From: a virus
Taxonomy: Duplodnaviria; Caudoviricetes
Virus record (IMG/VR): IMGVR_UViG_3300018475_000120
Coordinates: 1-64,000 of that record
Strand: one strand, 5' to 3'
Length of the DNA stretch: 64,000 bases
Under the pieces are notes generated by a model. It searched no databases and had not been told where the DNA came from. It saw only the letters and a list, made by a program, of their open reading frames with translations. Position numbers and translations under genes: made by a program. Positions 23,782 to 53,553 of the stretch are shown one piece after another (the first letter of the stretch is position 1; each line of letters starts with the position of its first letter).

Positions 23782-23985
23782 CTGCCAATTTGGCAGCCTC
23801 GTCAAAAAAAATGAAGACAACAACGAAAATAGAAAACCACGAGTTTTCTGCCAATTTGGCAGCCGGGGCGGAACTTGTTAACATAAATGATAATAAAACT
23901 CACGGCAAAGACATTTTTTCATAGACTGCCAAAATGGCAGCGGGTCCCTGCCAAAATGGCAGTATTGACTGCCAAATTGGCAAGA
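23782..23985. repeat. Iteron-like cluster 2: five CTGCCAA-n-TTGGCAG-type palindromes
   Basis: Copies at ~23782, 23848, 23926, 23948, 23969. Confidence 0.75.
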
Positions 23986-24605
23986 GAAATACAACAGAAA
24001 CAACAGATAAAATAAAAGAAGAGAAAAAGCAAAGTAATGTTCCAATAAAACTTACGCGCGACGAAACGAATAAATTATTAGAGAATTTGCGGTTTGAAAA
24101 AGATTATAAAATACAAAACGGTATAATAACAATTTTTAAAACCAATCAAACATACCTGTTGCCGCAGATATAATAATAAAAAATGGTAAAAAAATCATAC
24201 AACTCATCGTGTCAGGTAAAATAAAATAGATATAGAAAACCAGAGAGGAAACTCTCTGGTTTTTCGTTTGGAATAAAATTTTAATATCTGGGAAATTTTT
24301 CTCCTTGAAATAGGTGTGATTTTTTACTTGTTTATGACGAAATAAATAATTATTTTGACAAGCGAAAAATTTGGATTTCTGGAAAATATGAGGCAGACAC
24401 TACCCTTCCTTCCTATTTTTCCTTTCTACCCACCCTCTCCCCTTTTATTTTGGCCCTCATCCTTAATAAAATCGGAACCCTCCCCTCACCTTTTGGTTTT
24501 TATTAATTATATTACCCTAAAATCAAATAGGAAGTCCTTCATATCAAATCTCCTTCTAAATTTTTTCCCCTGTCGAAAAATTATTTAAAAGCCATAATAA
24601 GGAGT

Positions 24606-24814: not shown

Positions 24815-25228
24815 ATGTTTGATGTTGTTACTTATGCCCTCGTAAAAAAACTTGTAGGCTAGGCCGCATCCGGCATAACAAACGTAGAATTTAAGGACGG
24901 CAAACTAATCTTTACCCTATCTGATGGTTCTACTATTGAAACTCCTCTCGACATCAGCAGTGGAGTGGCTGGCGCCAGCCTCAATGAAGAAGGAGCCCTC
25001 GTTATTGAATTCAGCGATGGAACCTCCTTAACCTATGCGGCCGCCCTAAAGGAAGATTTACAAAAAGTTGAAGAAAAAGTTAGCGACTTAGGAAAAAACC
25101 TTGAAAACCTAACTCAATCTCACAACACCCTAAGTGAGGGCCATACTGCCTTATCCCAATCCTTTGAAGACCTGGGGTTATCGGTAGTAGATGGCCAACT
25201 TAATATAACTTACGAAGAAGGAGAATGA
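24815..25228 (+). CDS. Structural protein (TAG=Gln at 24860)
   Basis: GGAGG RBS, MFDVVTYALVKKLVG*AASGIT..., in frame with ORF 24965. Confidence 0.75.
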
Positions 25229-25233
25229 ATAGC

Positions 25234-25773
25234 ATGAGTAAAATAACTTCTCCTATTCTCCTTGACAAAACAGGCCAAGACCTCAACGTAAGTTTATAGG
25301 AAATTCGTGACGTATTAGCGGGTTTGCGCAACAACTCCATTAACGACGATATTGTTTCTCCCCTCAGCACTTGGAGTAGCGAAAAAATTATCAAAACTTT
25401 CGCAACCGTAAAAACTCAAACCGGCACCTCCATTACTTTTGAACCAATAGAAACAACTACCATCATCGTAAAAAGCACTGTTGCGGCCCAGGGCACCATC
25501 ACTTTAACCCATAGCGACGAAACAGGCACTTCCGCATCCTATACGATTGCCCTACCCGCCGCAGGCACATATAATTGGAACACCGGTATTTTTACCGCTG
25601 CTTCCAATAACACCACTACTACCCTAAAACGCCACGACATTGTAGGTATGGAAGGCCGCAATACTTTAAGCATCAGTAGCGGCACCATAGAAATCACCTA
25701 TAAATCCCTATAGGCTCCTGAGGCCCCTACCTGGACTGTTATTAATGGCGGAAGTTCCGCCGAGGAGCAATGA
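25234..25773 (+). CDS. Structural protein (TAG=Gln at 25297 and 25711)
   Basis: MSKITSPILLDKTGQ...; readthrough ends WTVINGGSSAEEQ-TGA next to the following start. Confidence 0.75.
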
Positions 25774-25778
25774 TAAAG

Positions 25779-27437
25779 ATGGCTATTTTAAAGACTAAAA
25801 TTGTTCTTCGTAATGACCTCGCTGAAAAATGGCTTTTAAATAACCCTACCCTCCTTGCTGGTGAAGCCGGCTTTGAGACCGATACAGGCTTATTTAAAAT
25901 TGGTAATGGCACCTCCGATTGGAAGAGTCTTCCCTATGCCAATGAATTTCAAGCGACCAATGGTGACGAACAATCCATCCACCTTTCCGAAGATGGCATC
26001 CTTACCCTCGTAAATTGGGAGCAAAAATATTTTGCTTGGAATGCCGAAACCAAGTCTTATGAAGAAACCGCTGGTTGGAAAGTAGGCTTAGAGCCCAAAG
26101 TAGGCCCTGATGGCTTACTAAATTGGTATGAGCCCAATCCCTCCACCCTAGACGGTGTAGAATCTTCTATTGCTACTTTAACTACTACTACCGAAACCCA
26201 CACTAAAGAAATTGCGGCCCTACAAGAAGCAGCCGCCAACCATCTTAAACTAAGCGGCGGCGCTCTAACCGGCGACCTACTATTAGCCGATGGTTATAAG
26301 GCCGCTTCTGAACAAGTAGTAGATACCAAAATTGCTTCCGCAATTCAAAGCGCAGGCCACTTAAAACGCGAAATCGTAGAAGTTCTTCCTGCGGTGGCTG
26401 AAGCCGACTTAGATACAATCTATATGATTAAGAGCGGCACCACCACTTCTGGCGACCTTTATAGCGAATGGATGGTCATTAATGGTGTGTTCGAACAAAT
26501 TGGCGACACCAGTGTTGACCTAAGCGATTATCTACGCAAAGTAGAAGGTGCTGTTCACGGCAACGTTGCGGCCCTGGATGCTAATGGCGTTTTAATTGAT
26601 GGAGAAATCGCGGCCCAGGCCATTAAAGGGCATTTAGAAGACGAAGAAATTCATATTTCTAGTGAAGAGCGCACTCTCTGGAACGAAGCTTCTACTCTCG
26701 CTTCTGAAAATGCCAACTCTATTGCGGCACTAGCGGCCTCTGTAGAGACTCAGAAATACGTAATCTTCTCTAAGCCCGTCGGCACTTCTGTCCGCTATAG
26801 CGACGATGAAATCCGTGTAATGGTGCCTGCTGATTATGTTTGGGAAAAACAAAATGTAGGCGCTACTGGCAATGCCAATATGTATTATATGGGCTTCCGT
26901 GCTTATGCTCCTGCTAATGCCGCAACCTTTAAAGAAGGCGACCAAGGCGTTATTGTAGACGAGATCTTAGACTTTAGCGGCGATTTCGCTGGTATTGATG
27001 CCTATGGCCGCAAATACAGCACTGTATGGTTAGCTCTTGCTTCCTATAATGCGGAAACTGATACTTGGACTTACTTTGGCGCACAATCTTCTACTCAACG
27101 CTACATTGGTTGGACTTACGTTGTTGAGTGGTATGATGAGAATGGCGTTCTAATTTCTAGCGACAGCATCCGCATCAACCTAAGCAATGAATCTTGCCAT
27201 TTAGCGGTCAAACCCTATTATATGGGTAGTGTAGTTAATACCGTTAAGGTTAATGGCACTGCTCTTGAAACCATTAACAACACTGTTGAATTTGGTGTAG
27301 ACGATGTTGTTAAAGGCTCTGAAGAAGTTACTGTAAGCGAAGAAGGCACCTTAGGCTTAGGCCTTGTTCCTTTTAGCAAACTCTACGTTGACGATGAAGA
27401 CGAAGTCATCATCGGTGGCGGCGGCAGCGACTTTTAA
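25779..27437 (+). CDS. Tail fibre/virion protein with Mtd_N (hyaluronidase-type) N-terminal domain
   Basis: LRNDLAEKWLLNNPTLLAGEAGFETDT..FKIGNG. Confidence 0.8.
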   Translation: MAILKTKIVLRNDLAEKWLLNNPTLLAGEAGFETDTGLFKIGNGTSDWKSLPYANEFQATNGDEQSIHLSEDGILTLVNWEQKYFAWNAETKSYEETAGWKVGLEPKVGPDGLLNWYEPNPSTLDGVESSIATLTTTTETHTKEIAALQEAAANHLKLSGGALTGDLLLADGYKAASEQVVDTKIASAIQSAGHLKREIVEVLPAVAEADLDTIYMIKSGTTTSGDLYSEWMVINGVFEQIGDTSVDLSDYLRKVEGAVHGNVAALDANGVLIDGEIAAQAIKGHLEDEEIHISSEERTLWNEASTLASENANSIAALAASVETQKYVIFSKPVGTSVRYSDDEIRVMVPADYVWEKQNVGATGNANMYYMGFRAYAPANAATFKEGDQGVIVDEILDFSGDFAGIDAYGRKYSTVWLALASYNAETDTWTYFGAQSSTQRYIGWTYVVEWYDENGVLISSDSIRINLSNESCHLAVKPYYMGSVVNTVKVNGTALETINNTVEFGVDDVVKGSEEVTVSEEGTLGLGLVPFSKLYVDDEDEVIIGGGGSDF

Positions 27438-27532
27438 TTAGTATACAAAGATTTAAGGGAGCATTTTTAATGAGATAAAAATAGTATATATCTATTTTGC
27501 TTAAATCTTTTATATTTTATTTAAGGTGAAAT

Positions 27533-27907
27533 ATGATGAGTAAGCATAAACAATCTAAAGGTGAAGCAAACATAGAAACTATTTTAAAAGAAAATCATAT
27601 TCTCTATAAAAAAGAATATACTTTCCCAGATTTAGTTTCTCCTAAAAACAAACCTTTGCGGTATGATTTTGCTATTTTAAATCCAAATCATACCGTGCGG
27701 CGTCTCATCGAGTTCGATGGGCCGCAACATAACCAAGCCGTTTCTTATTTTGGTGGTATGCGGCAATATCTTAAAACATGCAACTACGATTATATGAAAG
27801 ATTGTTATGCTCGCTATCGTCATATTCCATTAATACGTATTCCTTACTCTGAACGCGATAACATTACATTAGAAATGTTATTAAGCGATAAATATCTAAT
27901 TAATTGA
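27533..27907 (+). CDS. Free-standing PD-(D/E)XK/Vsr-like endonuclease domain
   Basis: SKGE...LRYDFAI...LIEFDGPQH...LIRIPY; AT-rich insert between fibre genes. Confidence 0.75.
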   Translation: MMSKHKQSKGEANIETILKENHILYKKEYTFPDLVSPKNKPLRYDFAILNPNHTVRRLIEFDGPQHNQAVSYFGGMRQYLKTCNYDYMKDCYARYRHIPLIRIPYSERDNITLEMLLSDKYLIN

Positions 27908-27920
27908 GGTGTATTTTATT

Positions 27921-30017
27921 ATGGCTACTACAACCCTAAACACCCGTATTTTACTAAAATATGACTCTTATGAAAATTGGCTAACTAATAACCCCGTGTT
28001 AAAGAAGGGCGAATTAGCAATTGCTTATCTTGACCAGGAACACGCCACTGAGGCTACTAACTTTCAAAACATCCCCAACGTAGTCCTCAAAGTAGGCGAT
28101 GGCACCAACCACTACAAAGACCTAAAATTCGTTTCCGGTCTAGCCGCAGACGTATATAGTTGGGCTAAGGCTCCCACTCGTCCTGAATACGAAGCCAAGG
28201 ACATTAAGGGCCTATCTGATTACATTGCTGGCGAAATCGAAGATACCGATACTCAGTACACCATCGTTAAGGTAACTGACTATCAATACAAACTCCAGTC
28301 CAAGGCTAAGGGCGAAGCTTCCTTCTCCGATACTGGTGTTGTAATTGACCTACCCAATGATACCGCCGCTATCACTGCTCTACAGAACAAACTAGTTGGT
28401 ATCGACGATACTGTTACCGCTTATGTTGCGGCTCAGATTGCGGCCCTATCTATTGGCGACTACGCTAAGAAAACCGAGGTTCAGGCAGTTTCCACCGAAC
28501 TAACCAATTACAAGACCTCTAATGATGCTGCCCTACAGGCCGTAAGCAACGACTTAGCTGGCTACAAGACCACCAATGACGCCGCTGTCAAGGCTAATGC
28601 TGACGCTCTTACCGCTATTAAGGACCACGAATCCGTTGATAGCTTCGGCGATGTAATGACCGAAATGGCCAAGTATCAGCTTGCTGGCGACTATGCCACC
28701 AAGGCTGAGGCTCAGGGCTATGCTACTGAAGCCGCCAATGGTAAAGACGCTGCCATCAAGGCCGCAAAAGATGCTGCTGATGCTGCTCAGGGCGAAGTTG
28801 ACGCTGTTGAACTACGCGTAGACGCTCTAGAAACTCACAAGACTGACTACGAAGCCAAGGTAAATACCTTAATCGGCGACGACGCTAACAAGTCTGCTCG
28901 CGCTATCGCTACTGAAGAAGCCAATAAGAAAGACGCAGCTATCGCGGCCGCCCAGAGCGCTGCTGACGCTGCTCAGGCTGATGTAGATGCTGTTGAACTA
29001 GACCTAGGTAATGTTGATAGCCTATCTACCGAAAACAAGACCGTTGTCGGCGCTATCAATGAAGTCCTAGCTGCTGTTGGCACTGGCGGCACTGCTGCTG
29101 TTGTTACCATGACCTCCGATACCACTACTGCTGGTATGGCTAAGTCCTACACCATTAAGCAGGGCACTACCACTGTTGGCGTAATCGATATTCCTAAGGA
29201 TATGGTAGTTGAGTCTGGTTCCGTAGTTGTAAATCCCGAAAGCCAGGCTGAAGGCACCTACATCAAACTAGTTCTAGCCAATGCTACCAACGATGAACTC
29301 TATATCAACGTTGGCACTCTAGTTGATATCTACAAGGCTCAGGCTAGCGCCGCTCAGGTCCAGTTAGCTATTGATAGTTCTACTCGTGAAATCAGCGCTT
29401 CTATCGTTGCTGGTTCTATCACTTCTACTGAACTAGCCGCTAACTCCGTAATCACCGAAAAGATTGCTGATGGCAATGTAACCAAGGCCAAGCTATCCAG
29501 TGCCGTTCAGGCTTCTCTAGACAAGGCTGATGCCTCCGCTACTGCTGCTGATTTAGACGCCGCTGAACTACGCTTAGATGCTATTGAAGAGCAGTTAGGC
29601 GATGGTGGCTCTGTTGCCGATCAGATTGCTACCGCTAAGCAGGAAGCTATTGAAGCTGCCGCCGGCGATGCTACTACTAAGGCAAATGCGGCCCAGGCTG
29701 CTGCTGAAGCTACCGCTAAGGGTTATACCGATGGCGAGATTGCTAAACTAGGCGATATGGCTAAGGAATCTAAGGCTGACTATGTTGCCAAGTCTGAGGC
29801 TCCTGGTTATGACGATATCCTAACCCAGACCGCTGCCGCTGCTGCTTATGAGCCTATTGGTTCTCAGGGCAAGGCTGAAGCCGCTGCTAAGGCTTATACC
29901 GATCAGCAGATTAATGGCCTAGCCGCTGTTGCTAAGTCTGGTAATGTAAACGACCTAGTGCAAACCGAAGGCGATTACATTATCTTCGATTGCGGCACTT
30001 CTAACACTGTAATGTAA
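27921..30017 (+). CDS. Long Ala-rich coiled-coil fibre protein with Mtd_N domain
   Basis: NWLTNNPVLKKGE...LKVGDG; AKAYTD repeats; IDIPKD motif. Confidence 0.8.
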   Translation: MATTTLNTRILLKYDSYENWLTNNPVLKKGELAIAYLDQEHATEATNFQNIPNVVLKVGDGTNHYKDLKFVSGLAADVYSWAKAPTRPEYEAKDIKGLSDYIAGEIEDTDTQYTIVKVTDYQYKLQSKAKGEASFSDTGVVIDLPNDTAAITALQNKLVGIDDTVTAYVAAQIAALSIGDYAKKTEVQAVSTELTNYKTSNDAALQAVSNDLAGYKTTNDAAVKANADALTAIKDHESVDSFGDVMTEMAKYQLAGDYATKAEAQGYATEAANGKDAAIKAAKDAADAAQGEVDAVELRVDALETHKTDYEAKVNTLIGDDANKSARAIATEEANKKDAAIAAAQSAADAAQADVDAVELDLGNVDSLSTENKTVVGAINEVLAAVGTGGTAAVVTMTSDTTTAGMAKSYTIKQGTTTVGVIDIPKDMVVESGSVVVNPESQAEGTYIKLVLANATNDELYINVGTLVDIYKAQASAAQVQLAIDSSTREISASIVAGSITSTELAANSVITEKIADGNVTKAKLSSAVQASLDKADASATAADLDAAELRLDAIEEQLGDGGSVADQIATAKQEAIEAAAGDATTKANAAQAAAEATAKGYTDGEIAKLGDMAKESKADYVAKSEAPGYDDILTQTAAAAAYEPIGSQGKAEAAAKAYTDQQINGLAAVAKSGNVNDLVQTEGDYIIFDCGTSNTVM

Positions 30018-30294
30018 TAAAACTCAAGGGAGAGATTAATTTCTCTCCCTTTTCTTTTTTATCTATTGAGGAAAATTTTTTGTAAAAGCGCATCTAAAAA
30101 ATTACCTTAAAAATGATAAGAATAGCCGCAAATGAAATGACTTTGCCGCGTTCTCCTATATAATTTGAAAATGATAATTTGATGGAGAAACAGTATCGCA
30201 TATTTCTTCATCACTTTGAGGGCTTTCTTTAATAGGAAAGCCCTCTTTTTTGTTATACTTTTATCCTAAAATAAAAAGGGGGGGCGCGATTGTA

Positions 30295-31371
30295 ATGAAC
30301 ATTAACAGTCGCATTATAAACAAACACGACACCGAAGCGAATTGGCTTACTGCCGCGGATTTTGTTCCAAAAATCGGTGAAATAGTAATCTATGACGCCG
30401 ACACAACAACCCCATATGCGCGTTTAAAGATTGGTGATGGCACTACTCCAATTAATAACTTACCTTTTGCTGATATAAGAGATACTGCTTTATATAAAAC
30501 ACCACAGACTTTAACCGACGCAGAGGTTGAACAAGTTCGTATTAATCTTAAAGCAGCAGGTGAAAACGTAGCTGGTCAATCTTTTGATATCGATGGGACC
30601 GCAACTACCGCAGGCGAAAATGCCGAAATTTTTAATGACTATAAAAACAATATCGCTGCGGGCAAGTATTCCCACGCAGAAGGATACCAAACGACCGCAA
30701 AAAGTAGTTATTCCCATGCGGAAGGTTATGACACACTCGCTGCTGGCGCGGCCGCCCATGCAGAAGGCTATGATACCAAGGCAACTGCCCGCTATGCTCA
30801 CGCGGAAGGTGCCTCTACTACTGCATCCGGTAATAACTCTCACGCTGAAGGCAACAACACCACTTCTTCAGGTCATTATAGCCACGCGGAAGGTAATTTC
30901 ACAACCGCCGCGGGAGGATATTCTCACGCAGAAGGTAATTACGCCCAAACAGGAGAAGATGGCACTTATGCTCACGCAGAAGGTAGTAATACCAAAGCGC
31001 TTAAAACGGGTGCTCACGCGGAAGGTAATTATACTGAAGCAAATGCCGTTTTCGCTCATACCGAAGGTTATTATACCAAAGCGGGTTCTCCTTATCAACA
31101 TGTGAGAGGTAAATACAATATTGTTGATGAGAATAATACATATTCAACAATTATTGGTAATGGCGACGCCGATAGTCGTAAAAATATCCACACTTTGGAT
31201 TGGGATGGCAACGCTTGGTTCACTGGAGATATTTATGTTGGTTCCACTTCTGGTATTGATAAAGATGAAGGTAGTAAAAAGGTTGCTACAGAAGACTATG
31301 TTCTTACTAATTTTATCTCTGCTAATAATGAATTTTTTATTGATGGCGGCACAGCCGCGGATGTTATATAA
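30295..31371 (+). CDS. Fibre/adhesin with Mtd_N domain and YadA-head-like SHAEG repeats
   Basis: KHDTEANW..FVPKIGE; about 11 tandem ~14-aa HAEG repeats. Confidence 0.85.
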   Translation: MNINSRIINKHDTEANWLTAADFVPKIGEIVIYDADTTTPYARLKIGDGTTPINNLPFADIRDTALYKTPQTLTDAEVEQVRINLKAAGENVAGQSFDIDGTATTAGENAEIFNDYKNNIAAGKYSHAEGYQTTAKSSYSHAEGYDTLAAGAAAHAEGYDTKATARYAHAEGASTTASGNNSHAEGNNTTSSGHYSHAEGNFTTAAGGYSHAEGNYAQTGEDGTYAHAEGSNTKALKTGAHAEGNYTEANAVFAHTEGYYTKAGSPYQHVRGKYNIVDENNTYSTIIGNGDADSRKNIHTLDWDGNAWFTGDIYVGSTSGIDKDEGSKKVATEDYVLTNFISANNEFFIDGGTAADVI

Positions 31372-31425
31372 GGAAGGGAATAAATTCCCTTCCTTATTTT
31401 GAAAATCTTTGTGAGGTGAATAATT

Positions 31426-32100
31426 GTGGCAGAAAAAAATCTCATTGGTCGCATAATTCATAAACATGACGTTGAAGAAAATTGGTTGAAAGCAACTAAT
31501 TTTGTTCCCAGACAGGGCGAAATTATTGTTTATGATATTGATAGCACCTACAATTATGAACGTTTTAAAATTGGTGATGGCACTACAAACATTAATACTT
31601 TACCTTTTGCCATTGATATTGCGGGCGCAGCATTTGGCACTGTTAAAAGCGGCGGCGACGTAACGATTGCTAATGGTATTATTAGTATTAATGATGACTC
31701 CCATAATCACAGCGTTAGCACTATTAATGGTCTACAAGATACCTTAGATGAAAAGGTAGCGCGTGATGAACTGGACGAAGAATTCCTCGCGGCACGCGGC
31801 AACTGGGATATTAATGATGAGAACGATGCTTCTTATATCTTTAATAGAACTCACTATGTTAAAGATGATGGTAGCGTTCAAAAATTAGAGGAAATTTTCT
31901 TACCAGATACCGTTCTTAAAAAGGCTAATGTGGTAAATAATTTAACTTCTAACGCAACTGATGCCCCTTTAAGTGCGGCCTAGGGCGCTGCCTTGAATAT
32001 TTTAATTAACAATAAAACCAGCAATAACGCTATTCAAACTGCGGTAAGTAGCTTTATTTCTGCTATTTCTGTCGCCGATATTGAAGCGATTTGCGTCTAA
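31426..32100 (+). CDS. Mtd_N-domain fibre protein (TAG=Gln at 31981)
   Basis: KHDVEENWLKATNFVP; readthrough gives the common fibre motif APLSAA(Q)GAAL and ends IEAICV-TAA. Confidence 0.8.
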
Positions 32101-32114
32101 TTAGGAGGCCAATT

Positions 32115-32972
32115 ATGTTATTTGAATTTTTAGATAAAACCGGCCTTAGTCGTCTTTGGGAACTAATTGTCGCCAAGATAGAGGCTAAAACTTCCTCTAT
32201 TTCTGTTGATAACTTAACTGCGGGCGAGAATAATCCCACTATTCCTTCTGAACTTCTTCCTCCCGTAGAAGATGAAGTCCAAAGTTATGCAAATTTTGCG
32301 AGTTTCCCTGATACTGGTGAAACAGGCGCAATATACATTGACCGCTCTACAAACAAAACTTATATTTGGACTGGGTTAGAGTATGCGGCCTTAACAACCG
32401 ATATTGCCGCGGACACCGCCTTAAATTCTACAAGCATCAACCCAGTTCAAAATAGAGTAATTACTACCGCAATTGAGCCTATGTTGGTTGTAGATGCAAA
32501 CGATGCTACCCAAGGTGAGGCCGCGGATGTAAATGCGGACCTATTAGGCGGCTTGCCTGCTTCTTCTTACATTACTAAAGCAGAATCTACTTTAGCACAG
32601 AATGAAATTTATATTGGCCCTACGCAACCTACTGACGGCCAACTTCTTTGGATTGATACCTTAGCAGAAGATGTAATGGCTATTACAGTAGATAATGCCA
32701 CTAAGTTAAATGGCTTGCCCGCAAGTTCTTATGCATTAAAACGCGACCTTACCGCAAGTGGTTTAATTACTGATGAAACTCTTACTGTTTCAGGAGCTGC
32801 CGCGGATGCTTTAGTAGTGGGTAATAATTTAACTGAGATTAGGACTTTAATTACCAGTCTTCAAGAAGCGCTTGAGAACTGTGTGAAATACAATGATACT
32901 GATATGACTGAAGAGCAGAAGACTTCACTACGTGAAACCTTAAGTATGGTTTACTTAGATGAGGAAGTTTAA
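32115..32972 (+). CDS. Tail-fibre-associated protein, paralogue of 38251-39240
   Basis: LGGLPASSY repeats; C-terminus TEEQKTSLRETLSMVYLDEEV. Confidence 0.75.
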   Translation: MLFEFLDKTGLSRLWELIVAKIEAKTSSISVDNLTAGENNPTIPSELLPPVEDEVQSYANFASFPDTGETGAIYIDRSTNKTYIWTGLEYAALTTDIAADTALNSTSINPVQNRVITTAIEPMLVVDANDATQGEAADVNADLLGGLPASSYITKAESTLAQNEIYIGPTQPTDGQLLWIDTLAEDVMAITVDNATKLNGLPASSYALKRDLTASGLITDETLTVSGAAADALVVGNNLTEIRTLITSLQEALENCVKYNDTDMTEEQKTSLRETLSMVYLDEEV

Positions 32973-32983
32973 GGAGAATTACT

Positions 32984-33598
32984 ATGAGTGAAATTATGAA
33001 ACCTAACAGTCCTCTTAAATTAGGGGGGGGCGGGCTAAGCGTCTACCCGCTTACTTCTTCCGATCAAATTATTCTTCCTGATGGTTCTCGTTGGGATGCC
33101 GAAGCTCCAATTTCAATAGAAGGAGGCGGCACTGGAGCCGCAACTATTGAGGGAGCTAAATAGAATCTTGGACTTGCGACAGTCGCGACAAGCGGAAGCT
33201 ATAATGATTTAACTAATACACCCTCCATCTTTACCCCATTAGACGCCTATCCGGTGGGGGCGATTTACCAATCCTATGAGAGCACCAGTCCGGCCAGCCT
33301 GTTCGGCGGCACCTGGACGCAATTGACGGATCGGTTTCTGGTGGGTGCAGGCAGCAGCTATGCTGTGGGGGCTACGGGGGGCGAGAAAACGCACAAGCTG
33401 ACGGTTGAGGAGATGCCAAACCATGCTCACGGGATTAACACAGGTTGTGGCAGCGTTGTAGACGCTGGCGGTATCGTTCTCCGTGGTTGGTCGGGCGATT
33501 CATACAAAACGCTTACTTCTGGCAGCGTTGGTGGCTCTGTCGCACACAATAATATGCCCCCCTATCTGGCGGTGTATATGTGGCGAAGGACGGCATAA
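32984..33598 (+). CDS. Baseplate/tail-collar-like protein (TAG=Gln at 33161)
   Basis: MSEIMKPNSPL...YPLTSSDQIILPDGSRWD...AK*NLGL...AYPVGAIY...HNNMPPYLAVYMWRRTA. Confidence 0.8.
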
Positions 33599-33610
33599 GG
33601 AGGATACAAA

Positions 33611-33967
33611 ATGGAAATTTATGACAAGCAAGGAAACTTATTAACGGAATATGACCTTAACTTGGGCAGGCTTGAAAGCTCTACTCGCATTGTGCATCAC
33701 CCCGCTGTTGAAGGCACGGAGGAACAATGGCATTGGGAAGTTATTGCGGAATACCCTAATGGCGGTAAAGACATAGAAAAGGTAATTGATGTTCCTGGAG
33801 TAATGACGCAAGACGCGTGGGATGAAGAAATCCCAATTAATATTTTCGTGCCTTATACTGAGGAAGAGAAACAATTAATGGAAGAAGAAGCTAATAAGCC
33901 AACCGATGAAGAGCGTCTTGAAGCATTAGAAATGGCATTATTAGAACTAATTGGGGTGAGCTTGTAA
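33611..33967 (+). CDS. Tail-fibre-associated protein
   Basis: EYPNGGKD...PTDEERLEALEMALLEL, typical downstream of fibre genes. Confidence 0.7.
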   Translation: MEIYDKQGNLLTEYDLNLGRLESSTRIVHHPAVEGTEEQWHWEVIAEYPNGGKDIEKVIDVPGVMTQDAWDEEIPINIFVPYTEEEKQLMEEEANKPTDEERLEALEMALLELIGVSL

Positions 33968-34065
33968 TGATTAAATTTTTAGTAAATCAAATTCGTTTAA
34001 AGCGCATTACTTTAGAACAGGTTCCAGAAAAATATAGGGAACAAGTCGCGGCGCAACTACAATAA
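33967..34065 (+). CDS. CD1375/XkdX-like small protein
   Basis: MIKFLVNQIRLKRITLEQVPEKYREQV; overlapping TAATG junction. Confidence 0.65.
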   Translation: MIKFLVNQIRLKRITLEQVPEKYREQVAAQLQ

Positions 34066-34131
34066 ATTAATCAAAAGGGGCAGAGCGGTCCTCTGCCCCA
34101 TTCTTATTAACATTATAGGAGAGATTTAAAT

Positions 34132-35172
34132 ATGTCATATTTAAAACCATAGAGTCCTATAAAGAACTCGAACGACCATATTTATCCCCTTACCACATAT
34201 GACCAAATTATTATGCCAGATGGCAGTCGTTGGGATGGCGTGACTGCTCCCACTGATAGCTTTGTTCAAAAATCTGGCGATGAAATGATTGGCACACTTA
34301 CTACTCCGGGTTTAGTTCTTAAAGACGTAGGCGGCGGCAGCACTACTCTTGCTTTTAGCGATGGGACAGGCGAAGTTTTGAGTTATTTACAAAGCAATAC
34401 CGCCACAGGCGCGCTTACTTTTGGGCAACAAACCGCGGGTGCCAAGTATAAGGAATTATATAGATTCCCCACTGCTGATGAAACTTTAACCGAAGATACA
34501 GTTTATGAGCTATTAACTACAAAAAATAGCGTAAAGAGCGTTAATGGCGAAAATGGAGAAGTTACTATTACTCCTGAGAAAATTGGCGCAGTTAAGACTA
34601 CTGGCGATACTATGACAGGAGCACTTACTCTTCAAAATGCTGGTTTACGATTCCGAAATGAAAGTGGCTCCTTAATAGGAAGAATTACGATATCTGCTGA
34701 TTCAAAAAACTTTAGATTTTTACAAAATTATGCTGAAAATGAGCCTTATGAATACTATGCCCTTCCCCCAGCTTCTCAAGTTAGTGGTGATAGTAATGTA
34801 TTATATAGTATTCTAACTTCTAAGAACCCCGTCACTGTTGCTCAAGGTGGTACTGGTGCTACTGACGCGGCGACCGCTCGTACTAATTTAGGTATTACTC
34901 CCGGCAATATTGGCGCAGTAGTAATGCGGCTAGGCACAACAACTCTAACAGCAGGTCAAACCAGTTGGCAAGCAACCGTAACTGGGGCTTCTTATTCTCC
35001 CGATGACAATCTTATTATTATGCCAGCTCCTGAAAGCCATACTGCCTACCATAAAGCAGGCGTATATTGTACTGGTTTGGTGGAGGATTAGGTTCTTGCT
35101 TTTACTGCTTCTAAGGCTCCTGCCTCAGATTTAACAGTTTAGATTTTAATTTTAAGTAATAACGGAGGTTAA
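34132..35172 (+). CDS. Tail fibre protein (three TAG=Gln), paralogue of 39257-40531
   Basis: MSYLKP*SPI...YPLTTYDQIIMPDGSRWD; PVTVAQGGTGAT; TAG at 34150, 35089, ~35140. Confidence 0.8.
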
Positions 35173-35178
35173 TAATAT

Positions 35179-36306
35179 ATGGCAATTTTTAATATGGGCA
35201 GCATAGTTAATGAGCCTCCTGTATTGGATAGTAATTATCCGGCTGATGTTACAGTAAGAGAAAGTGCCACAGCAAGCGCAACTTTCAAAATTGTCATTGC
35301 TACTCATGGTACTCCTGATGAGTACACTTATTAGTGGTATGTTAATGGAACTGCGGTAAGCGGAGCTACAGGTGCTTCTTATACTAAGAGCGACTTAACA
35401 AGAGTAGATACAACTGATACTTTGAAAGTAAAAACTTTTAGTGTATATTGCGTAGTTACTAATGATGCCGGTAGCGTTGTAAGTAGAACAGCTACTTTAA
35501 CTTTAAAGAGTGCTTTACCTACCTTAGCTTCTGGTAGTGCCGCGATTACTCGTCGCAACAGTTACGATTGGGAGATGAAGGTGACTGGTACAACCACACT
35601 AAAATTCTCTGATTTAGGTAATTGTAATGGTACCGTTCAAGTATTCTGCGTCGGTGGCGGAGGCGGTGGTTCTCGCTTTACTGACAGCAACTATTATGGC
35701 GGCGGTGGTGGAGGTGGCGGTTATACCAAAACTGCTTCTACTTCTATTGCTGTTAATACTAACTATGTTATGACAATTGGTTCTGGTGGTGCTGGTGCTA
35801 CTTCTGGTATGCCTGGCAGCGCTGGTACCGCAACTTAGGCTTTTAATAGCGCTGTTGTCGCTAACGGTGGTTCTGGCGGCGGAAACTGGTGTGCAGGCGG
35901 CGCAGGAGGTTCCGGTGGAGGTGGCGGCGGCTATAGTTCTAGTTCCTCTAATAAAGGCGGCAATGGCGGCACAAATGGAGGAAATGGCGCAGCTGGAAAG
36001 GCAGATGCTTCAGACCGCAAAGGTGGTTCTGGTCAGGGTACTACTACCAAGGCTTTCGGACTTAGTTCAGAGATTGCCTATGCTGGTGGAGGCGGAGGCG
36101 GAGCTGGTATAAATAGTAGCGGTTCAACCTCTGGCGGCTATGGCGTTGGTGGCACATATGGCGGTGGAGACGGTGGAAGATATGGGCCTGTCACTAACGC
36201 TTTGAATGGCATTGCCAACTCTGGTGGTGGCGGTGGTGGAGCTAAAGCTCAGAAAGCTGCCGGCGCGCAAGGCGGCTCTGGTATTATAATAGTTCGTAAT
36301 AATTAA
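35179..36306 (+). CDS. Ig-like plus glycine-rich tail protein (two TAG=Gln)
   Basis: YTY*WY Ig motif; VGGGGGG...GGSGIIIVRN glycine-rich domain. Confidence 0.8.
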
Positions 36307-36317
36307 CGGAGGTCATT

Positions 36318-36572
36318 ATGGATTACGCTCAATTAGATGAAAATAATGTTGTAATCAACATCTTATATTTTGACCCTGCGTATGGTTGCTCTGAACAGTT
36401 AAAAACTGAATTAAATTTAGTATATGTCAATGGTTATCCAGTATATCATGGAGATACCTATAATTTTGAAGAGCAACGTTTTTATCGTAATGGCGAAATA
36501 GTTTTATCTTATCAAGAAGAGTTAGAAATGGCTCTACATATCATTTTAATGGGGGTGGATGTGAATGTATGA
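36318..36572 (+). CDS. Tail assembly/fibre-associated small protein
   Basis: YAQLDENNVVINI, typical after Gly-rich tail genes. Confidence 0.7.
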   Translation: MDYAQLDENNVVINILYFDPAYGCSEQLKTELNLVYVNGYPVYHGDTYNFEEQRFYRNGEIVLSYQEELEMALHIILMGVDVNV

Positions 36573-36999
36573 TTTAATTAAAGAAGCACGTCGTGTACGC
36601 CCTTATATTGTAAAGGCCGCGATTTCTTTAGATGATAAGGAAATTAGCGAAGTTCCTGAGCTTTGTGATACTATGAAATATAGCGGTTCGCTTATTCCTT
36701 ATCAAACTCGTATCAATTGGTATGGTAAAGTAAAGCGTGCTGTCGTTGATTTATGGGATACCGAAGAAAATAACCCCGATAATGCGCCTTCTTTATGGGA
36801 AGATATTGCTTATAAACAAGGCTATCGTTATATTCCCGAAACTATCACCGCGGCTTCTGCTTTTGTTAAAGATGAGCTTGGTTGGTGGAAGGAAACTTCA
36901 CTATATAAGTCCCTCATTGACGCTAATGTCTGGACTCCCGAAGCATATCCTGCTGGTTGGGAGTTAGTAAGAACTGAAGAATCTCCTATGATGGAATAA
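36565..36999 (+). CDS. Virion protein with carbohydrate-binding-like (CBM5/12-like) motifs
   Basis: NPDNAPSLWEDI...YKSLIDANVWTPEAYPAGWE. Confidence 0.65.
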   Translation: MYDLIKEARRVRPYIVKAAISLDDKEISEVPELCDTMKYSGSLIPYQTRINWYGKVKRAVVDLWDTEENNPDNAPSLWEDIAYKQGYRYIPETITAASAFVKDELGWWKETSLYKSLIDANVWTPEAYPAGWELVRTEESPMME

Positions 37000-37017
37000 T
37001 TTAAGGAGAGATAACAA

Positions 37018-38205
37018 ATGGCTGTTTTAAAATATAAAGACCAAACTGGTAAATTTATTTGTATTCCCGCCATTCAAGGTCCCGCGGGCGGTGTTGTAGA
37101 CGTCGCCCAGAGTGCCACACCCGGCTATTTAACCGTTACTAATAGTGATGGTACTACTGAAGAAATTTCCGTATGTTTAGGACACGGTGGCGGCGGAGAA
37201 GGCTCTGGAGTTTCTGAAATTATTGTAAATGTTTCTGAGCCTGCTTCTACTGATATAAAGTTATGGATTGACCCCGATACTGGCGCGGGCTTAATGAAGT
37301 ATCGCGGCACTGATAATACTTTCAGCGTAATGCCTGGTGTTTTTAGTGTAACTGAAAGCGCTACTAAGGGTTATATTACCGTAAAAAATAATGACGGAAA
37401 CGTTAGCGAAGTTCCTGTCGGCGATCCCAATGCTCTAATTAAAACTGGCGATACCATGACTGGTGCTTTGAATATGAATGGCGCAGTTATTACTTACAAG
37501 ACTGCTGAAAATGTTCCTATGGCACGTTTTGGTATTAGTGCTACAAATCAGCTAAGATTCTGGGAGTTCAATAGTGCTGGTACTAATTATGAATATTATA
37601 ATTTGCCTGCGCCTGATTTAAGTCGTACTTCTAATCAAGAGTATAAAATCCTAACCAATAAACAAGCAGTATCCGTAGCAGAGGGTGGCACGGGCGCTAC
37701 TACTGCCGCGCAGGCCGCCATTAATCTTAATGTGCTTCCGCTTACCGGTGGCACAATTACTGGCGACCTAAATGTTACCGGTAAAGTTACTGGCGCGGTC
37801 TGGAACGACTATGCTGAATATCGTAGCGCAGAGGTAATAGAGCCTGGCCGTGTAGTTGTAGAAGATAATGATGGCATTATGAAACTTGCGGCCCATCGCT
37901 TACAGCCTGGCGCAGAAATCATTTCTGATACTTTTGGCTTCTCTATTGGTGAGTCCAAAGACTGCCGCACTCCTATTGCTTGTAGTGGTCGTGTATTAGC
38001 TTATACCTACGAAGACCGTAATGAATTCCAACTTGGCGAAGCCGTATGTAGCGGCCCCAATGGTACTGTTAGTCGTATGACACGCGAAGAGATTCGTAAT
38101 TATCCTGAACGTATCATCGGTACAGTATCTGAAATTCCTTCTTATGAAACTTGGGGTGCTGGCGGCGTTAAAGTTGATGGCCGTATTTGGATTAGAATTA
38201 AATAA
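37018..38205 (+). CDS. Tail fibre with C-terminal intramolecular-chaperone (peptidase G2/IMC-like) domain
   Basis: VSVAEGGTGATT; GAVWNDYAEY...PIACSGRV. Confidence 0.75.
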   Translation: MAVLKYKDQTGKFICIPAIQGPAGGVVDVAQSATPGYLTVTNSDGTTEEISVCLGHGGGGEGSGVSEIIVNVSEPASTDIKLWIDPDTGAGLMKYRGTDNTFSVMPGVFSVTESATKGYITVKNNDGNVSEVPVGDPNALIKTGDTMTGALNMNGAVITYKTAENVPMARFGISATNQLRFWEFNSAGTNYEYYNLPAPDLSRTSNQEYKILTNKQAVSVAEGGTGATTAAQAAINLNVLPLTGGTITGDLNVTGKVTGAVWNDYAEYRSAEVIEPGRVVVEDNDGIMKLAAHRLQPGAEIISDTFGFSIGESKDCRTPIACSGRVLAYTYEDRNEFQLGEAVCSGPNGTVSRMTREEIRNYPERIIGTVSEIPSYETWGAGGVKVDGRIWIRIK

Positions 38206-38250
38206 TTTATATGGGAGGGCATATGCCCTCCCTTATTTTGGAGGTAATTT

Positions 38251-39240
38251 ATGTCAGATTACCAAGAATTAGCCAATAAAGTATATCCGCCTTCTAATTT
38301 TTAGGATGGTAATGTACTTTATGGAGCAGATTTAAACACAGTTGAGAATAATATCATAGAAATGGAAAAGCGTTTGCGGACCGAGCCTTTTAGTGTAGAA
38401 AGACTCAGCGGCGGCGTTAATAATGCAAGAATTTCTATTGATTTGCTTCCCACGTCCTTAGATGACATTATGGAATTTGAAACTTGGGAAGCTTTAAATG
38501 CTTTTACTGAAAAAGCAGAAGGCAAATTATATATTATAAAGAATACTAACGCTATTTATCGTTGGGATATTGCGACGGGTGTTTTTATTGAAATGTCCGC
38601 GGGAGACATTGTTCGTGGTGAACCCATTGAAGAAGAAGATTCTTATGGCTATAATAATGCCATTTCTAATAGTAGTGTTGTGAAATATTTTGCACGCACT
38701 AAAGATTTTGAAGAACAAGACCCCAATTGGACTGGTATCGACCCCAACACTCTATATTTATATAATTCTGATATGTTAGGTGGCCAGCCCGCAAGTGCTT
38801 ACGTGCTAAAGTCTGAATTAGGCGATGATGACGGTAGCGGACAAATAGAATATGTTGCTACGGATACTCAAAAACTGGGCGGCATTGTAGCAAGTGCTTA
38901 CGCTTTAAAAAATGATTTAGCTCCCTTGTCTAATAATATCAATACCCTTATAGAATAGCAAGTTACTCTTCAAACAAAAGTGAGCGAACACGATACAGAT
39001 ATTGCGACCCTACAAGATACTATCGCGGCCTTAGAAGCAGAAAATGAAGAATTTACTACACAAGTGGCGACTTTAACGAATGATAATACCGCATTAAAAT
39101 CTCGTTTAGCCGAGGTAGAAGAAAATATTACTTCTCTTGCCGCGATTGTAGCTAATTGCGTCCAATACAGTAATATGACTGAAGAACAAAAAACTTCTCT
39201 TCGTACTGAATTAGATTTAGTTTATTTAGAAGAAGTATAA
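38251..39240 (+). CDS. Tail-fibre-associated protein (TAG=Gln at 38302 and 38956)
   Basis: Joins ORFs 38362 and 38980 in frame; GGAGG RBS; C-terminus matches 32115-32972. Confidence 0.8.
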
Positions 39241-39256
39241 GTAAAGAGGTGAGAAT

Positions 39257-40531
39257 ATGGCTTTAACATTAGACCCAAGTAAAATCCTAAGACCTATTCA
39301 TCCTCTTTCTTAGGATGGATATCAATTTTTCCCATTAACACACTATAGCCAAATTATTATGGCTGACGGTAGCAGATGGAATGGTATCTCTGTTGATAAA
39401 GTAGTTGATGAAGAAGGCAATGAAATCTTTAAAATGCCGACCGACAAATCTTTATTAATCGATGGCGCGCCAGCAGATGCTAAAATCACTGGTCAAAGAA
39501 TTGATGCTTGTTTATTAAAATCAGGTGGCATTATGACCGGTACTTTGAGTATCGATAGAACCACTGGCGTTGCCGCGACTATTGATTTCATAAATAATAC
39601 TAAACCAATTGCTCGTCTTACTGCAAATACTAATGGCAATCGTTTTACTTTTTGGCAATTTAATGCCGCAGGAGCTTATGAATACTATCAATTACCAATA
39701 GTAAAGGTAGATGAGGCGATACCCGAAGATAATCAGCATTTAATTTTGACTTCCAAAATGCCCGTTACAATCGAATAGGGTGGCACAGGAGCAACTGATG
39801 CAACAACGGCTCTGGTTAATTTAGGTGCTTTACCTCTAGCTGGTGGTACAATTACTGGTCCATTGGTAACTGATGATATAGTAACTTTGAATAAACAAGT
39901 ATTTGCAAAAGGTATTTTTAATAGTCAAGGCACTTTCTATGCTGAGTCATTATTCCATATTCGCAATGGCAACTATAAGCCTACCTTGCATTTTAGTACA
40001 TATCAATTATAGAGAGGTCAAACTAGCGGTTCAATCGTATATGCGGCCCCAGATACTACAAATGGTTATACGGCCAGAAGTCGTTTCTAGTTTTAGCAAT
40101 TTAGTTATAATGGTAGTCTTGATGCAGTAACTACTGTATCAGAAACTTTCAATTTGCCTGATACAGCAGAAGGATTAGCGTCTTCAGAATCCTATAATAT
40201 CCTTACCACTAAATCTCCCGTGACTGTCGCCCAAGGTGGCACCGGTGCGACGACTGCGGCAGCGGCTCGTGCGGCACTGGGAGCGGTAAATAAATCAGAT
40301 ATCGAGATTGCTTTGCCTGTTTCTGGTTGGGATAGTAATGGTGTTTAGACAGTTAGCGTAGAACAAATTACTACCGAAAGTAGTGTATTGGTTGCGCCAA
40401 ATCCTAGTGTATATGCGAGCTATCATCAATATGGCGTTTATTGCTCTGATTAGGGTGATGGTACATTATCTTTTAAATACAGAATTAAACCTGAAATAGA
40501 TTTAGTCGTCAATACTGTTATCTTTAATTAA
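39257..40531 (+). CDS. Tail fibre protein (seven TAG=Gln)
   Basis: Joins ORFs 39359 and 40154; PVTIE*GGTGAT versus PVTVAQGGTGAT in the same protein. Confidence 0.8.
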
Positions 40532-40545
40532 GGAGGACATATAAT

Positions 40546-41646
40546 ATGGGTATTTATAATATAGGCGGCCCTTCTTATAGTCTTCCTATTTTAGATATAA
40601 GTTATCCGAAAGATATCACTATGCGAGAATAGGCTAATGGTTAGGCTACTTTTGAAGTTAAAATTACCAGAGACGGCTTTCCTAATGACTATAAGTATTA
40701 GTGGTATGTGAATAATACAATAGTAGATGGGGCAACTAATATTTCTTATACAATGACTGGCTTGACAGAAACCTCTAATTACACGTTATATTGTGTTGTT
40801 TCTAATGATGCCGGCAAAGTTATTAGCAAAACTGCCAATCTTACTGTAACTAGCGCCTTAGCTTCTTATACTTTAAATGGCACTTCATATACAGCTCTAA
40901 GAGATCCTTACAGTAATAGTGGATACGATTGGCTAATTACCTTGACGGGTTCCACAACTCTTAAATTCTCTGATTTGGGAAATTGTGATGGCACCATTGA
41001 TGTTTTCCTTGTAGGAGGTGGAGGAGGCGGAGGTAGCTTCGCAGGAACTAGTAATTACTATGGTGGTGGCGGAGCTGGAGGTGGATATACAAAGACTTTC
41101 ACGATGCCAGCTAGTATAAATACTAATTATATTGCTGAAATTGGTAGCGGTGGAGCTGGAGGTAGTAAAGCTAATGGTGATTCAGGAGGAATTACTAGTT
41201 TTAACGGAACTTCTATAAATGGTGGTTCTGGCGGTGGCACTTGGTGTACCGGTGGGAATGGTGGCTCTGGCGGCGGCGCAGGAGAAAAAGGTGATGATAA
41301 AGCCGGCAACGGAGGTAGTAACGGTGGCAATGGTGGTAGTACCTCAATTGATGGTAGCACCATGGCCGGAGGTACGGGACAAGGAGGCACCACTCGTGGT
41401 TTTGGTTCATCTTCATATGATTTATATGCCGGTGGCGGCGGTGGTGGACAAGGTATAACCAGTGGCTCTCCAGGCACAGCAGGTACACCAGGAAATCGTG
41501 GCGACGAGACCAGCGGCGGTTGGTATAATGGAAGTAAGGTAGCACCATTAGCCAATAGAGGCGGTGGTGGATGTGGCGGTGGCAATAACCATGGAACTGG
41601 ACAAACTGGCGGCTCTGGTGTTATCCTTATCCGCAATCATAGATAA
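40546..41646 (+). CDS. Ig-like plus glycine-rich tail protein (three TAG=Gln), paralogue of 35179-36306
   Basis: GGAGG RBS; YKY*WY; TTLKFSDLGNC shared with paralogue. Confidence 0.8.
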
Positions 41647-44587: not shown

Positions 44588-45355
44588 ATGGGTAATTTTA
44601 TAGATTTGACTGGGCAAAAATTTTCACGGCTTACTGTAGTTGAACGCGATTATAATTCAAAAATGGCTTAGAAATATAAAGTAGCATATTGGCTATGTAA
44701 ATGTGATTGCGGTAATCCTAATTTAGTAAGTGTATCTTCTTCAAATTTACGGCGTAATCAGGTTAAATCTTGCGGCTGTTTAAATCATGAAAAACGAGGA
44801 CCGCGAGTTGTGCCTGATATGACTGGGCAAGTTTTTGGAGAATTAACTGTTTTAAGTCGTAACTTAGATTATTATGAATTAAAATAGAACGGAAGAAGTT
44901 ATTGGAATTGTTTATGCTCTTGTGGTAATATTTGTGTTTATAGTAATAATGCCTTAAAAACCGGACGTGCTATTTCTTGTGGTTGCTAGAAATCAAAAGG
45001 TGAGGCTTATATTAAAAGACTTTTATAGAAGGCTAATGTTGAATTCCAATATTAGAGTAATCCATATAATTGGAAATTATCTTCTGGTTGGCAACCGCAT
45101 TTTGATTTTTTCATTCATCATCCTATTACAAACAAGTGGTTCTTTTTAGAATATGATGGACGGTAGCATTATGAAGCTGATAAAAATGGATGGAATACAA
45201 ATGAAAAATTAATTATTACTTAGCAACATGATTTAGAAAAGAATAAACTTTGTTTTAAAAATCATATTCCTTTAAAACGTATCCCCTATTGGAAATTAGA
45301 AAATATAACAATTGAAAATATCTTAGATGATACATTTTTAATAAAGGAGAAGTAA
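44588..45355 (+). CDS. Homing-endonuclease-like protein, CDCG repeats plus PD-(D/E)XK domain (seven TAG=Gln)
   Basis: IDLTGQKFSRLTV...WLCKCDCG...SCGC*KSKGE...FDF...LEYDGR*HY...LKRIPYW; absent from the ORF track. Confidence 0.85.
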
Positions 45356-51667: not shown

Positions 51668-51747
51668 GGGAAGATGGCGAAAATGGTATACGCGCCGCAA
51701 AGTCGGAGTAAGCGGTTTTATAGGTTCGAATCCTATTCTTCTCACCA
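51668..51747 (+). tRNA. Atypical tRNA-like RNA with 13-nt anticodon loop
   Basis: GGGAAGA/TCTTCTC acceptor, GCG/CGC D stem, CCGC-AAAGTCGGAGTAA-GCGG, ATAGG-TTCGAAT-CCTAT, ACCA. Confidence 0.7.
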
Positions 51748-53535: not shown

Positions 53536-53553
53536 AAGAAAGGAATAAGAATT

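Follow-up and report, generated by a model that had tools for sequence, protein, structure and literature searches.

Glutamine recoding of TAG in the late genes of a large gut phage, and a possible anticodon-like extra arm in its amber suppressor tRNA

Phages in which the stop codon TAG is recoded to glutamine are reportedly described by Ivanova et al. in a 2014 study. We analysed such recoding in a 64,000-nt window (the whole stretch of DNA studied here), which represents bases 1-64000 of the 76,964-bp viral record IMGVR_UViG_3300018475_000120 (CheckV completeness estimate, 44%), with emphasis on the tail-fibre and baseplate module at 24815-41646 and on the amber suppressor tRNA of the same phage, tRNA(CUA). 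Gut phages using NCBI genetic code table 15, in which UAG specifies glutamine, include crAss-like, Lak and Firmicutes-infecting clades, according to the accessible parts of the Borges et al. preprint (10.1101/2021.08.26.457843) and of Peters et al. (PMC9523058). The same parts of the preprint report the TAG distribution that is also found here, including a recoded intron endonuclease inside an early gene, to which the GIY-YIG gene at 49117-49911 with its four TAG codons corresponds. A further relevant system is phAss-1 of the proposed Phassvirus group, for which the available text (PMC10607447) describes a phage from the gut, larger than 100 kb, that has TAG in tens of open reading frames (ORFs), tRNA-SUP-CTA genes judged to be of glutamine type, no synthetase of its own and a suspected Clostridia-type host.

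The phage studied here has in common with the code-15 gut phages the occurrence of TAG at glutamine positions, the bias of TAG towards structural, lysis and intron-endonuclease genes, early genes that the standard code can read, a low G+C content (39% for the genome), a suppressor tRNA(CUA) and the use of host synthetases. It differs from them in that the suppressor gene lies 3' of the lysis amidase gene and not in an upstream 'code change module', in that this phage has no release factor (its relative G009 has one), and in belonging to a lineage of about 166 kb whose RNA ligase is closest to those of large Bacillus phages (43-45% identity). The traits listed for phAss-1 are shared as well, but the 16.8-kb region at 24815-41646 gave zero megablast matches among 50,697 GenBank phage records, and the structure of the suppressor tRNA is not discussed in the accessible part of the phAss-1 report. 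The genome-wide pattern is the known code-15 recoding of late genes; a preliminary description of this DNA had rightly noted TAG-to-glutamine recoding as established in some gut phages, and the recoding itself is a further case of a well-documented phenomenon. What the present analysis adds is a view of the genome as a whole, the placement of the suppressor gene shortly beyond the contig end and, more important than the recoding itself, the apparently undescribed extra-arm architecture of the suppressor tRNA.

Under table 11, the region 24815-41646 is split into many short plus-strand ORFs. When TAG is read as glutamine, 18 plus-strand ORFs tile the region nearly gap-free, ending in TAA (14) or TGA (4), and most are preceded by a GGAGG-like site, in line with the earlier statement that readthrough joins ORF fragments from a good ribosome-binding site to a TAA or TGA. 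Based on PHROGs and Pfam matches to Mtd_N, phage fibre repeats, Gp10_C, and immunoglobulin-like (Ig-like) plus glycine-rich domains, this block is predicted to be a tail-fibre and baseplate module, with two paralogous cassettes (34132-36306 and 39257-41646) in which a fibre gene is followed by an Ig-like/glycine-rich gene. Its genes, and the other TAG-rich genes referred to below, are as follows (lengths in amino acids, aa; q denotes TAG).

24815-25228, plus strand: 137-aa gene of the tail-fibre module, TAG at 24860; 64% identical to a gene of the relative G007, which has Q opposite the TAG
25225-25773, plus strand: 182-aa gene, TAG at 25297 and 25711; the G007 homologue has R and I at those columns
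25770-27437, plus strand: 555-aa tail-fibre-like gene (Mtd_N), no TAG
27533-27907, plus strand: 124-aa HNH-family homing endonuclease (phrog_559, 3.7e-25), no TAG, with the motif IEFDGPQH
27909-30017, plus strand: 702-aa tail protein, no TAG (29 CAA/CAG)
30250-31371, plus strand: 373-aa gene, no TAG
31426-32100, plus strand: 224-aa fibre-repeat gene, TAG at 31981 (APLSAAqGAAL)
32091-32972, plus strand: 293-aa gene, no TAG
32984-33598, plus strand: 204-aa Gp10_C baseplate or fibre gene (PF21939, 74 bits), TAG at 33161
33611-33967, plus strand: 118-aa gene, no TAG, no family match
34132-35172, plus strand: 346-aa fibre gene, TAG at 34150, 35089 and 35140; paralogue of 39257-40531
35179-36306, plus strand: 375-aa Ig-like plus glycine-rich gene, TAG at 35332 (YTYqW) and 35836
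36318-36572, 36565-36999 and 37018-38205, plus strand: three genes, no TAG
38251-39240, plus strand: 329-aa coiled-coil fibre gene, TAG at 38302 and 38956
39257-40531, plus strand: 424-aa fibre gene, seven TAG (39311, 39776, 40010, 40088, 40094, 40346 and 40451)
40546-41646, plus strand: 366-aa Ig-like plus glycine-rich gene, TAG at 40630, 40642 and 40699 (YKYqW)
44588-45355, plus strand: 255-aa HNH-family homing endonuclease, seven TAG
49117-49911, plus strand: GIY-YIG homing endonuclease inside a probable group I intron, four TAG
contig 74316-75773, past the window end: amidase gene, seven TAG

Nine of the 18 tiled genes hold in-frame TAG, 22 codons in total, and none holds an internal TAA or TGA; this absence is partly by construction, which does not apply to how far the frames stay open. 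Past the first TAG of each of these nine genes there are 2175 codons in all without TAA or TGA, and with an off-frame TAA+TGA density of 0.068 per codon in the same genes (log10 P about -67) the open stretches are far beyond chance. Plus-strand ORF cover of the region increased from 0.82 (21 ORFs) under code 11 to 0.96 (18 ORFs) with TAG as glutamine, the outcome expected of the proposed comparison of coding density. A code with TGA as tryptophan was rejected, as its cover of 0.81 (20 ORFs) brought no gain over code 11, and a crude stop-to-stop cover test was uninformative between codes at 39% G+C. The observation of frames that read through TAG is therefore confirmed, and all motifs quoted in the preliminary description were located at in-frame TAG codons: YTYqWY at 35332, YKYqWY at 40699, APLSAAqGAAL at 31981, PVTIEqGGTGAT at 39776 (to be compared with PVTVAQGGTGAT in the same gene and in 34132-35172) and LEYDGRqHY at 45164 (compared with IEFDGPQH in 27533-27907). 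That description spoke of at least ten structural genes with TAG; the presence of TAG stands, but the count is nine of 18, and it becomes eleven only if the ORF at 23790-24173, which has one TAG and for which no homologue was found, and the HNH gene at 44588-45355, which is not structural, are added. It was correct that the supplied ORF track is wrong for these genes, and the practical consequence is that code-11 gene calls fail in about half of the late genes of this phage.

Homology extends across the TAG codons with E-values down to 1e-160, and 25 of the 27 in-frame stops of relatives that lay inside alignments in a first tblastn search were TAG. Six TAG codons are situated in conserved homologue columns, and glutamine is the majority residue at all six, as had been anticipated from the motifs. 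Three of these are in the HNH gene 44588-45355, for which the 120 best database homologues have Q in 77 (aa 156), 113 (aa 193) and 88 (aa 212) cases; at aa 193 the remaining residues are L (3), R (2) and H (2), and the other four TAG codons of this gene are in variable or gapped columns. In the fibre gene 39257-40531, 60 of 86 homologues have Q at the conserved GGTGAT-motif column (aa 174), and the remaining six TAG columns of the gene are poorly covered or variable. In the Ig motif YxYqW, counted over the best high-scoring segment pair per protein, Q occurs in 128 of 146 (aa 52 of 40546-41646) and 130 of 147 (aa 52 of 35179-36306) representative proteins; at aa 220 of 35179-36306 the homologues have no Q majority.

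A comparison with G007, a complete 174,462-bp relative, points in the same direction. Over 65 syntenic gene pairs, the 26 TAG codons of this phage that could be compared face Q in nine cases and TAG in two (11/26), and for CAA/CAG codons Q was the aligned residue in 86 of 255 columns, so that TAG behaves as an ordinary glutamine codon. Conversely, the TAG codons of G007 face Q of this phage in 4 of 10 cases. Among the 40 differences listed, out of 730, between the region and contigs of four sequencing runs, none is at a TAG position; eight of the pieces listed, from X2, which is possibly the source, agree with the region throughout (0 differences). An identical 424-aa fibre protein, read through TAG, is already present in the protein database (P0121); close database homologues may thus have been translated with TAG as Q as well, and for this reason the argument rests on the distant homologues.

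The use of TAG was then compared between gene classes over the contig and its extension (71 genes), with the TAG share defined as TAG/(CAA+CAG+TAG).

Tail-fibre module: 18 genes, 9 with TAG; share 22/157 (14%)
Lysis-side cluster, 70.1-75.8 kb: 8 genes, 4 with TAG; share 12/73 (16%)
Homing endonucleases: 5 genes, 3 with TAG; share 21/52 (40%)
Other genes with a family hit or G007 homologue (early or middle): 40 genes, 1 with TAG; share 1/184 (0.5%)

The 71 genes terminate in TAA (55) or TGA (16) and never in TAG. Recoding across structural genes, as originally claimed, is thus present, but it is not confined to them: it extends to the lysis-side cluster and is strongest in the homing endonucleases. 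The 88,844-bp record G008 (54% complete), which continues the contig, contains an ORF of 3974 aa with 81 TAG and one of 2100 aa with 32 TAG, and its portal gene (4 TAG), terminase pieces, several virion protein genes and a sigma-factor-like gene have 1-11 TAG each. No TAG is present in its genes for topoisomerase II, helicase, primase, RecJ and NrdD, in the probable major capsid and tube genes, or in a 1323-aa ORF that is possibly the polymerase gene.

The genome was joined from overlapping records. Positions 1-5286 of contig L065 (record G006) correspond to 71679-76964 of the contig with 100% identity over 5286 nt, G008 begins 3 nt past the contig end, and G006 and G008 match over 22,815 nt with one mismatch. 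The contig and this extension sum to about 165.8 kb, and the joined genome is collinear with that of G007. We conclude with high confidence that the window belongs to a phage of virulent type, about 166 kb in size and found in gut or faecal metagenomes of animals, that translates UAG as glutamine.

On the 76,964-bp contig itself no CUA tRNA was detected by ARAGORN, with or without introns, or by Rfam. A 91-nt tRNA(CUA) gene is located 241 nt past the contig end (L065:5527-5617; also G008:238-328), where the order is amidase, tRNA-Ser(CGA) (contig 76510-76604), tRNA-Leu(CAA) and tRNA(CUA). In G007, tRNA-Ser(CGA) and then tRNA(CUA) follow 3' of the amidase, and relatives keep the suppressor at the same place. 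The anticodons of this trio are all one base from CUA, and tRNAs of this kind are classic sources of amber suppressors. A blastn search with the suppressor against GenBank phages gave only partial matches, in six records, the best of them to a tRNA-Ser(CGA). The suppressor carries U1-A72, G2-C71, G3-C70, G10 and G73, which constitute the bacterial glutamine acceptor identity set as tabulated in the accessible part of PMC9976931 (Table 1), and on the 5' side its acceptor strand matches the tRNA-Gln(UUG) of G007 at every position. Its anticodon loop, CU-CUA-AA, retains U35 and A37 of the glutamine set U34, U35, G36, A37 and U38 and has A at positions 36 and 38; its variable region is of 21 nt with a 3-bp hairpin, not the 4-5 nt of a class I variable loop. 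The suggested check for a CUA tRNA, a release factor or GlnRS elsewhere in the genome thus yielded the tRNA but neither of the proteins: no RF-1 domain and no tRNA-synt_1c domain (the catalytic domain of GlnRS/GluRS) was found in G000, G006 or G008. G009, a more distant relative with the same suppressor type, encodes an RF-1-domain protein at 118575-118901, in a 379-aa open frame, which this phage and G007 lack. The conserved columns, the comparison with G007, the absence of TAG terminators and the glutamine-type tRNA(CUA) agree with one another and support, at the level of comparative sequence analysis, the interpretation that TAG is read as glutamine.

Several observations weigh against this interpretation or limit it. 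Glutamine is not the majority residue at variable TAG columns; at aa 134 of the HNH gene, 109 of the 120 homologues have M, I, L or V and only two have Q, at aa 280 of the fibre gene 39257-40531 Q is missing from the eight most frequent of 71 aligned residues, and at aa 29 and aa 33 of 40546-41646 the homologues mostly have G and S. The close homologues P0001 and P0122 may themselves be translations with TAG as Q, so that their Q is not independent evidence. The dCMP deaminase gene at 68302-68721, of early type, has a TAG at codon 3, and a resolvase-like gene has ten, which counts against a clean early/late split. So do three TAG codons, one gene with them being 72223-72621 and two others lying in the extension, that precede the TAA or TGA by 3-9 codons and could terminate translation. 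Finally, the suppressor is off the contig of the window and was placed through a 100%-identical overlapping contig, and its long extra arm and G73 are features that SerRS uses.

The last point suggests that TAG might be translated as another residue, namely serine, or lysine or glutamate. According to the available part of PMC7609411, SerRS recognises a long variable arm together with G73, both of which the suppressor has, and K ranks second in frequency at variable TAG columns. However, serine is absent from the residues of all 120 homologues at aa 193 of the HNH gene and is not among the six commonest at the Ig-motif column with Q in 128 of 146, and the acceptor stem has the full glutamine identity set and not G1-C72. 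K and E also replace glutamine encoded by CAA/CAG, being its usual replacements in the comparison with G007 (30 and 23 of 255 columns), and phage tRNA(CUA) genes in E. coli extract were GlnRS substrates, as stated in the accessible text of PMC12636597. We consider translation of TAG as any of these residues very unlikely. Still less probable is readthrough by the host alone, through a suppressor of its own or a host code with TAG as glutamine. Such a scenario would fit the lack of a CUA tRNA on the contig itself, and about 60% of recoded phages have no detected suppressor in the survey of Borges et al., as far as its preprint (10.1101/2021.08.26.457843) is accessible; but the phage suppressor is only 241 nt past the contig end, with relatives likewise arranged, and the avoidance of TAG by early genes (1/184) fits a host that reads TAG as stop. 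That TAG is an ordinary stop and the fragments are decayed or separate small genes, for most of which code-11 ORFs do exist, with three TAG codons close to real terminators, can practically be dismissed given homology across TAG down to 1e-160, 2175 codons past the first TAG free of TAA and TGA, 0 of 71 genes ending in TAG, and a tRNA(CUA) gene.

With TAG read as glutamine, recoding would serve to time late-gene expression. Genes for replication, nucleotide metabolism and RNA repair are free or nearly free of TAG as a sense codon, and free of it as a terminator, and since early genes avoid TAG they would be readable by an unmodified standard-code host. Tail-fibre, other virion, lysis-side and homing-endonuclease genes would yield full-length products only once the phage amber suppressor is present. 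Because the phage has no GlnRS/GluRS and no release factor of its own, host enzymes would have to charge the suppressor, which would also have to compete with host release factor 1 (RF1).

How an anticodon-reading synthetase charges a suppressor with a changed anticodon is a question raised in the Discussion of the Borges preprint (10.1101/2021.08.26.457843, accessible part), and the extra arm of the suppressor may bear on it. The 21 nt between the anticodon arm and the T arm can form the hairpin GCC/CCCUGAA/GGC. Its loop, CC-CUG-AA, is of the same type as the tRNA's own anticodon loop with G at the equivalent of position 36, beside a U35-like base, and hence reads as the glutamine anticodon CUG. 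The corresponding loops of relatives are CUUUGAA (G009) and CUCUGAC (G007), on different stems.

Related tRNAs were sought in pattern scans of a viral-contig collection. All counts from these scans are among the matches listed, two of the scans select long arms, and because the tRNAs are related to one another the counts do not represent independent events. A scan for the UGGGG acceptor that allowed class I lengths gave at least 11 distinct CUA tRNAs, at least 10 of them long-armed, and in 10 of 10 long-armed tRNAs listed YU(C/U)UGA occurs at the corresponding alignment position. Among possible hairpins of 3-5 bp with a loop of 7 nt, the best one displays CUG or UUG as its anticodon triplet in five of these ten; in the other five another register is equal or better. 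When only a CUCUAAA loop and the T loop were fixed, at least 17 distinct CUA tRNAs with many different acceptor stems were obtained, and YUGA was present in 13 of the 15 resolved long-armed tRNAs listed. The analogous opal design (loop CUUCAAA) yielded long-armed UCA tRNAs, mostly with the tryptophan identity set (A1-U72, G2-C71 and so on, G73), whose listed extra-arm loops resemble the tryptophan anticodon loop, for instance CUCCAAA. The motifs were distributed as follows among the matches listed.

Amber (CUA), distinct long-armed tRNAs: 23; YUGA in 21, UCCA in 0
Opal (UCA), distinct long-armed tRNAs: 19; YUGA in 0, UCCA in 17
Control, class II sense tRNAs of these phages: 39; YUGA in 5, UCCA in 1

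In an alignment of 28 distinct listed sequences, which was fitted to a model and leans towards it, the two base pairs that close the loop of the extra arm can form in 23 of 24 and 24 of 25 cases, with changes on both sides in 11 and 4 sequences, respectively. The suppressors of two relatives (L031 and L032) are ordinary class I tRNAs. An acceptor-anchored scan of genome and metagenome contigs yielded four tRNAs among the 237 loci listed, one of them a CUA tRNA identical to L096, and neither a host nor a new variant was found among these matches.

The E. coli supE-type tRNA-Gln(CUA) provides a known parallel in that it has the glutamine acceptor set (PMC9976931, accessible part), keeps U35 and has G36 changed to A. 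The supE tRNA is an ordinary class I tRNA, whereas the phage tRNA has a 21-nt variable region with the loop CC-CUG-AA, in which the lost G36 is still shown. Class II tRNAs (Ser, Leu, Tyr and Sec; PMC7609411, available part) likewise have a base-paired arm between the anticodon and T arms. In the suppressors, unlike these, the arm motif follows the amino acid, with YUGA beside CUA and UCCA beside UCA, and both motifs are rare in class II sense tRNAs (5/39 and 1/39 among the matches listed).

On the basis of these motif patterns, we tentatively propose that phage suppressors could keep their amino-acid identity through a second, anticodon-like arm, with YUG (glutamine) beside CUA and CCA (tryptophan) beside UCA; we regard this as a serious possibility, although one that falls somewhat short of being probable. 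The arm would occupy the place of the class II variable arm and show the original sense anticodon in its loop, most likely having originated from a tandem duplication of the anticodon arm with one base change. Both GlnRS and TrpRS use the anticodon as a major determinant, and loss of glutamine determinants can lower activity by up to 1e5-fold (PMC9976931, accessible part); an arm that shows the sense anticodon could thus restore recognition. It might let host GlnRS (or GluRS with GatCAB) and TrpRS, all of which read anticodons, accept the suppressor, either with the arm acting as a decoy or by a switch to another fold, the extra arm then taking the place of the decoding arm. Alternatively, the extra arm may be a relic or have another function. 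Literature searches that did not extend to subscription papers and supplements returned no description of such an arm, which is apparently an undescribed architecture of natural suppressor tRNAs. If the proposal of a second anticodon-like arm is correct, the arm, occurring separately in the glutamine/amber and tryptophan/opal combinations, would offer a concrete testable mechanism for the charging of suppressors and a design principle for engineered suppressor tRNAs.

The GIY-YIG gene at 49117-49911 belongs to what is probably a group I intron, about 1.07 kb long (about 48909-49975), which splits a DUF2828/TROVE-like gene (Ro-type, RNA-binding) into 48663-48908 and about 49982-51262; in G007 the orthologue has no such interruption. 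The RF00028 match at 49833-49973 is weak (28.3 bits against a gathering score of 50), and the TAG at 49934, being inside the intron, was dropped as a coding TAG. A comparable arrangement was seen in G008, where the NrdD gene is in two pieces around a GIY-YIG gene, and terminase-like and HNH genes adjoin.

The window itself contains the following tRNA cluster.

14918-15649, plus strand: tRNA-Leu(UAA), tRNA-Lys(UUU) and a UAU tRNA, none of which reads TAG

The tRNA-Lys(UUU) at 15270-15426 has its anticodon loop interrupted at the wobble position by about 83 nt of inserted sequence, and its G007 orthologue, by which it was identified, is uninterrupted; this intron-bearing tRNA had been considered as a CUA suppressor and was rejected, as it cannot yield CUA. 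A 'tRNA-Pro(cgg)' at 51668-51747 has a mismatched anticodon stem, is below the Rfam gathering score and is doubtful. Folded alone, the tRNA-Lys insert forms a nested cloverleaf whose terminal stem has 7 bp and which includes a hairpin resembling a T arm, GGCCG/UUCAAUU/CGGCC (z -1.67). A group I intron would need more sequence than this insert provides; as the phage encodes an RNA ligase, a Thg1-like enzyme and an RlaP-like nucleotidyltransferase, its excision by tRNA-processing enzymes followed by ligation is conceivable. In G007, ARAGORN called intron-bearing tRNA-Tyr and tRNA-Asn. In the UAU tRNA at 15563-15649, which decodes AUA, the variable region is 16 nt long and shows no clear helix, unusual for tRNA-Ile. 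The spacers at 15006-15269 and 15427-15562 appear G+C-rich by eye relative to the 39% of the genome and gave no Rfam family at E up to 1; a similarly G+C-rich spacer separates the two matching tRNAs in G007, and the spacers may represent a structured RNA of unknown type or act as a signal for processing.

The interval 52486-63216 contains an RNA-repair and tRNA-related cluster without TAG, encoding a YqeY domain, an RNA ligase, an RlaP-like nucleotidyltransferase, a Thg1-like guanylyltransferase and phosphoesterases. Its first gene is as follows.

52486-52932, plus strand: YqeY-domain protein (GatB-tail-like; PF09424, 51 bits), no TAG

YqeY was found in G000, G007 and G001 but not in the complete G002, and by tblastn in only three of 50,697 GenBank phage records; a link between it and charging of the suppressor is speculation. 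At 1-11000 the window has few convincing ORFs whichever code is applied, and long ORF-like stretches there give low-complexity translations, proline runs included. Two paralogous minus-strand genes in this part (624-1337 and 6467-7132) are about 26% identical to a single G007 gene. In circular order, the end of G008 is a purine-rich run just ahead of 1-11000.

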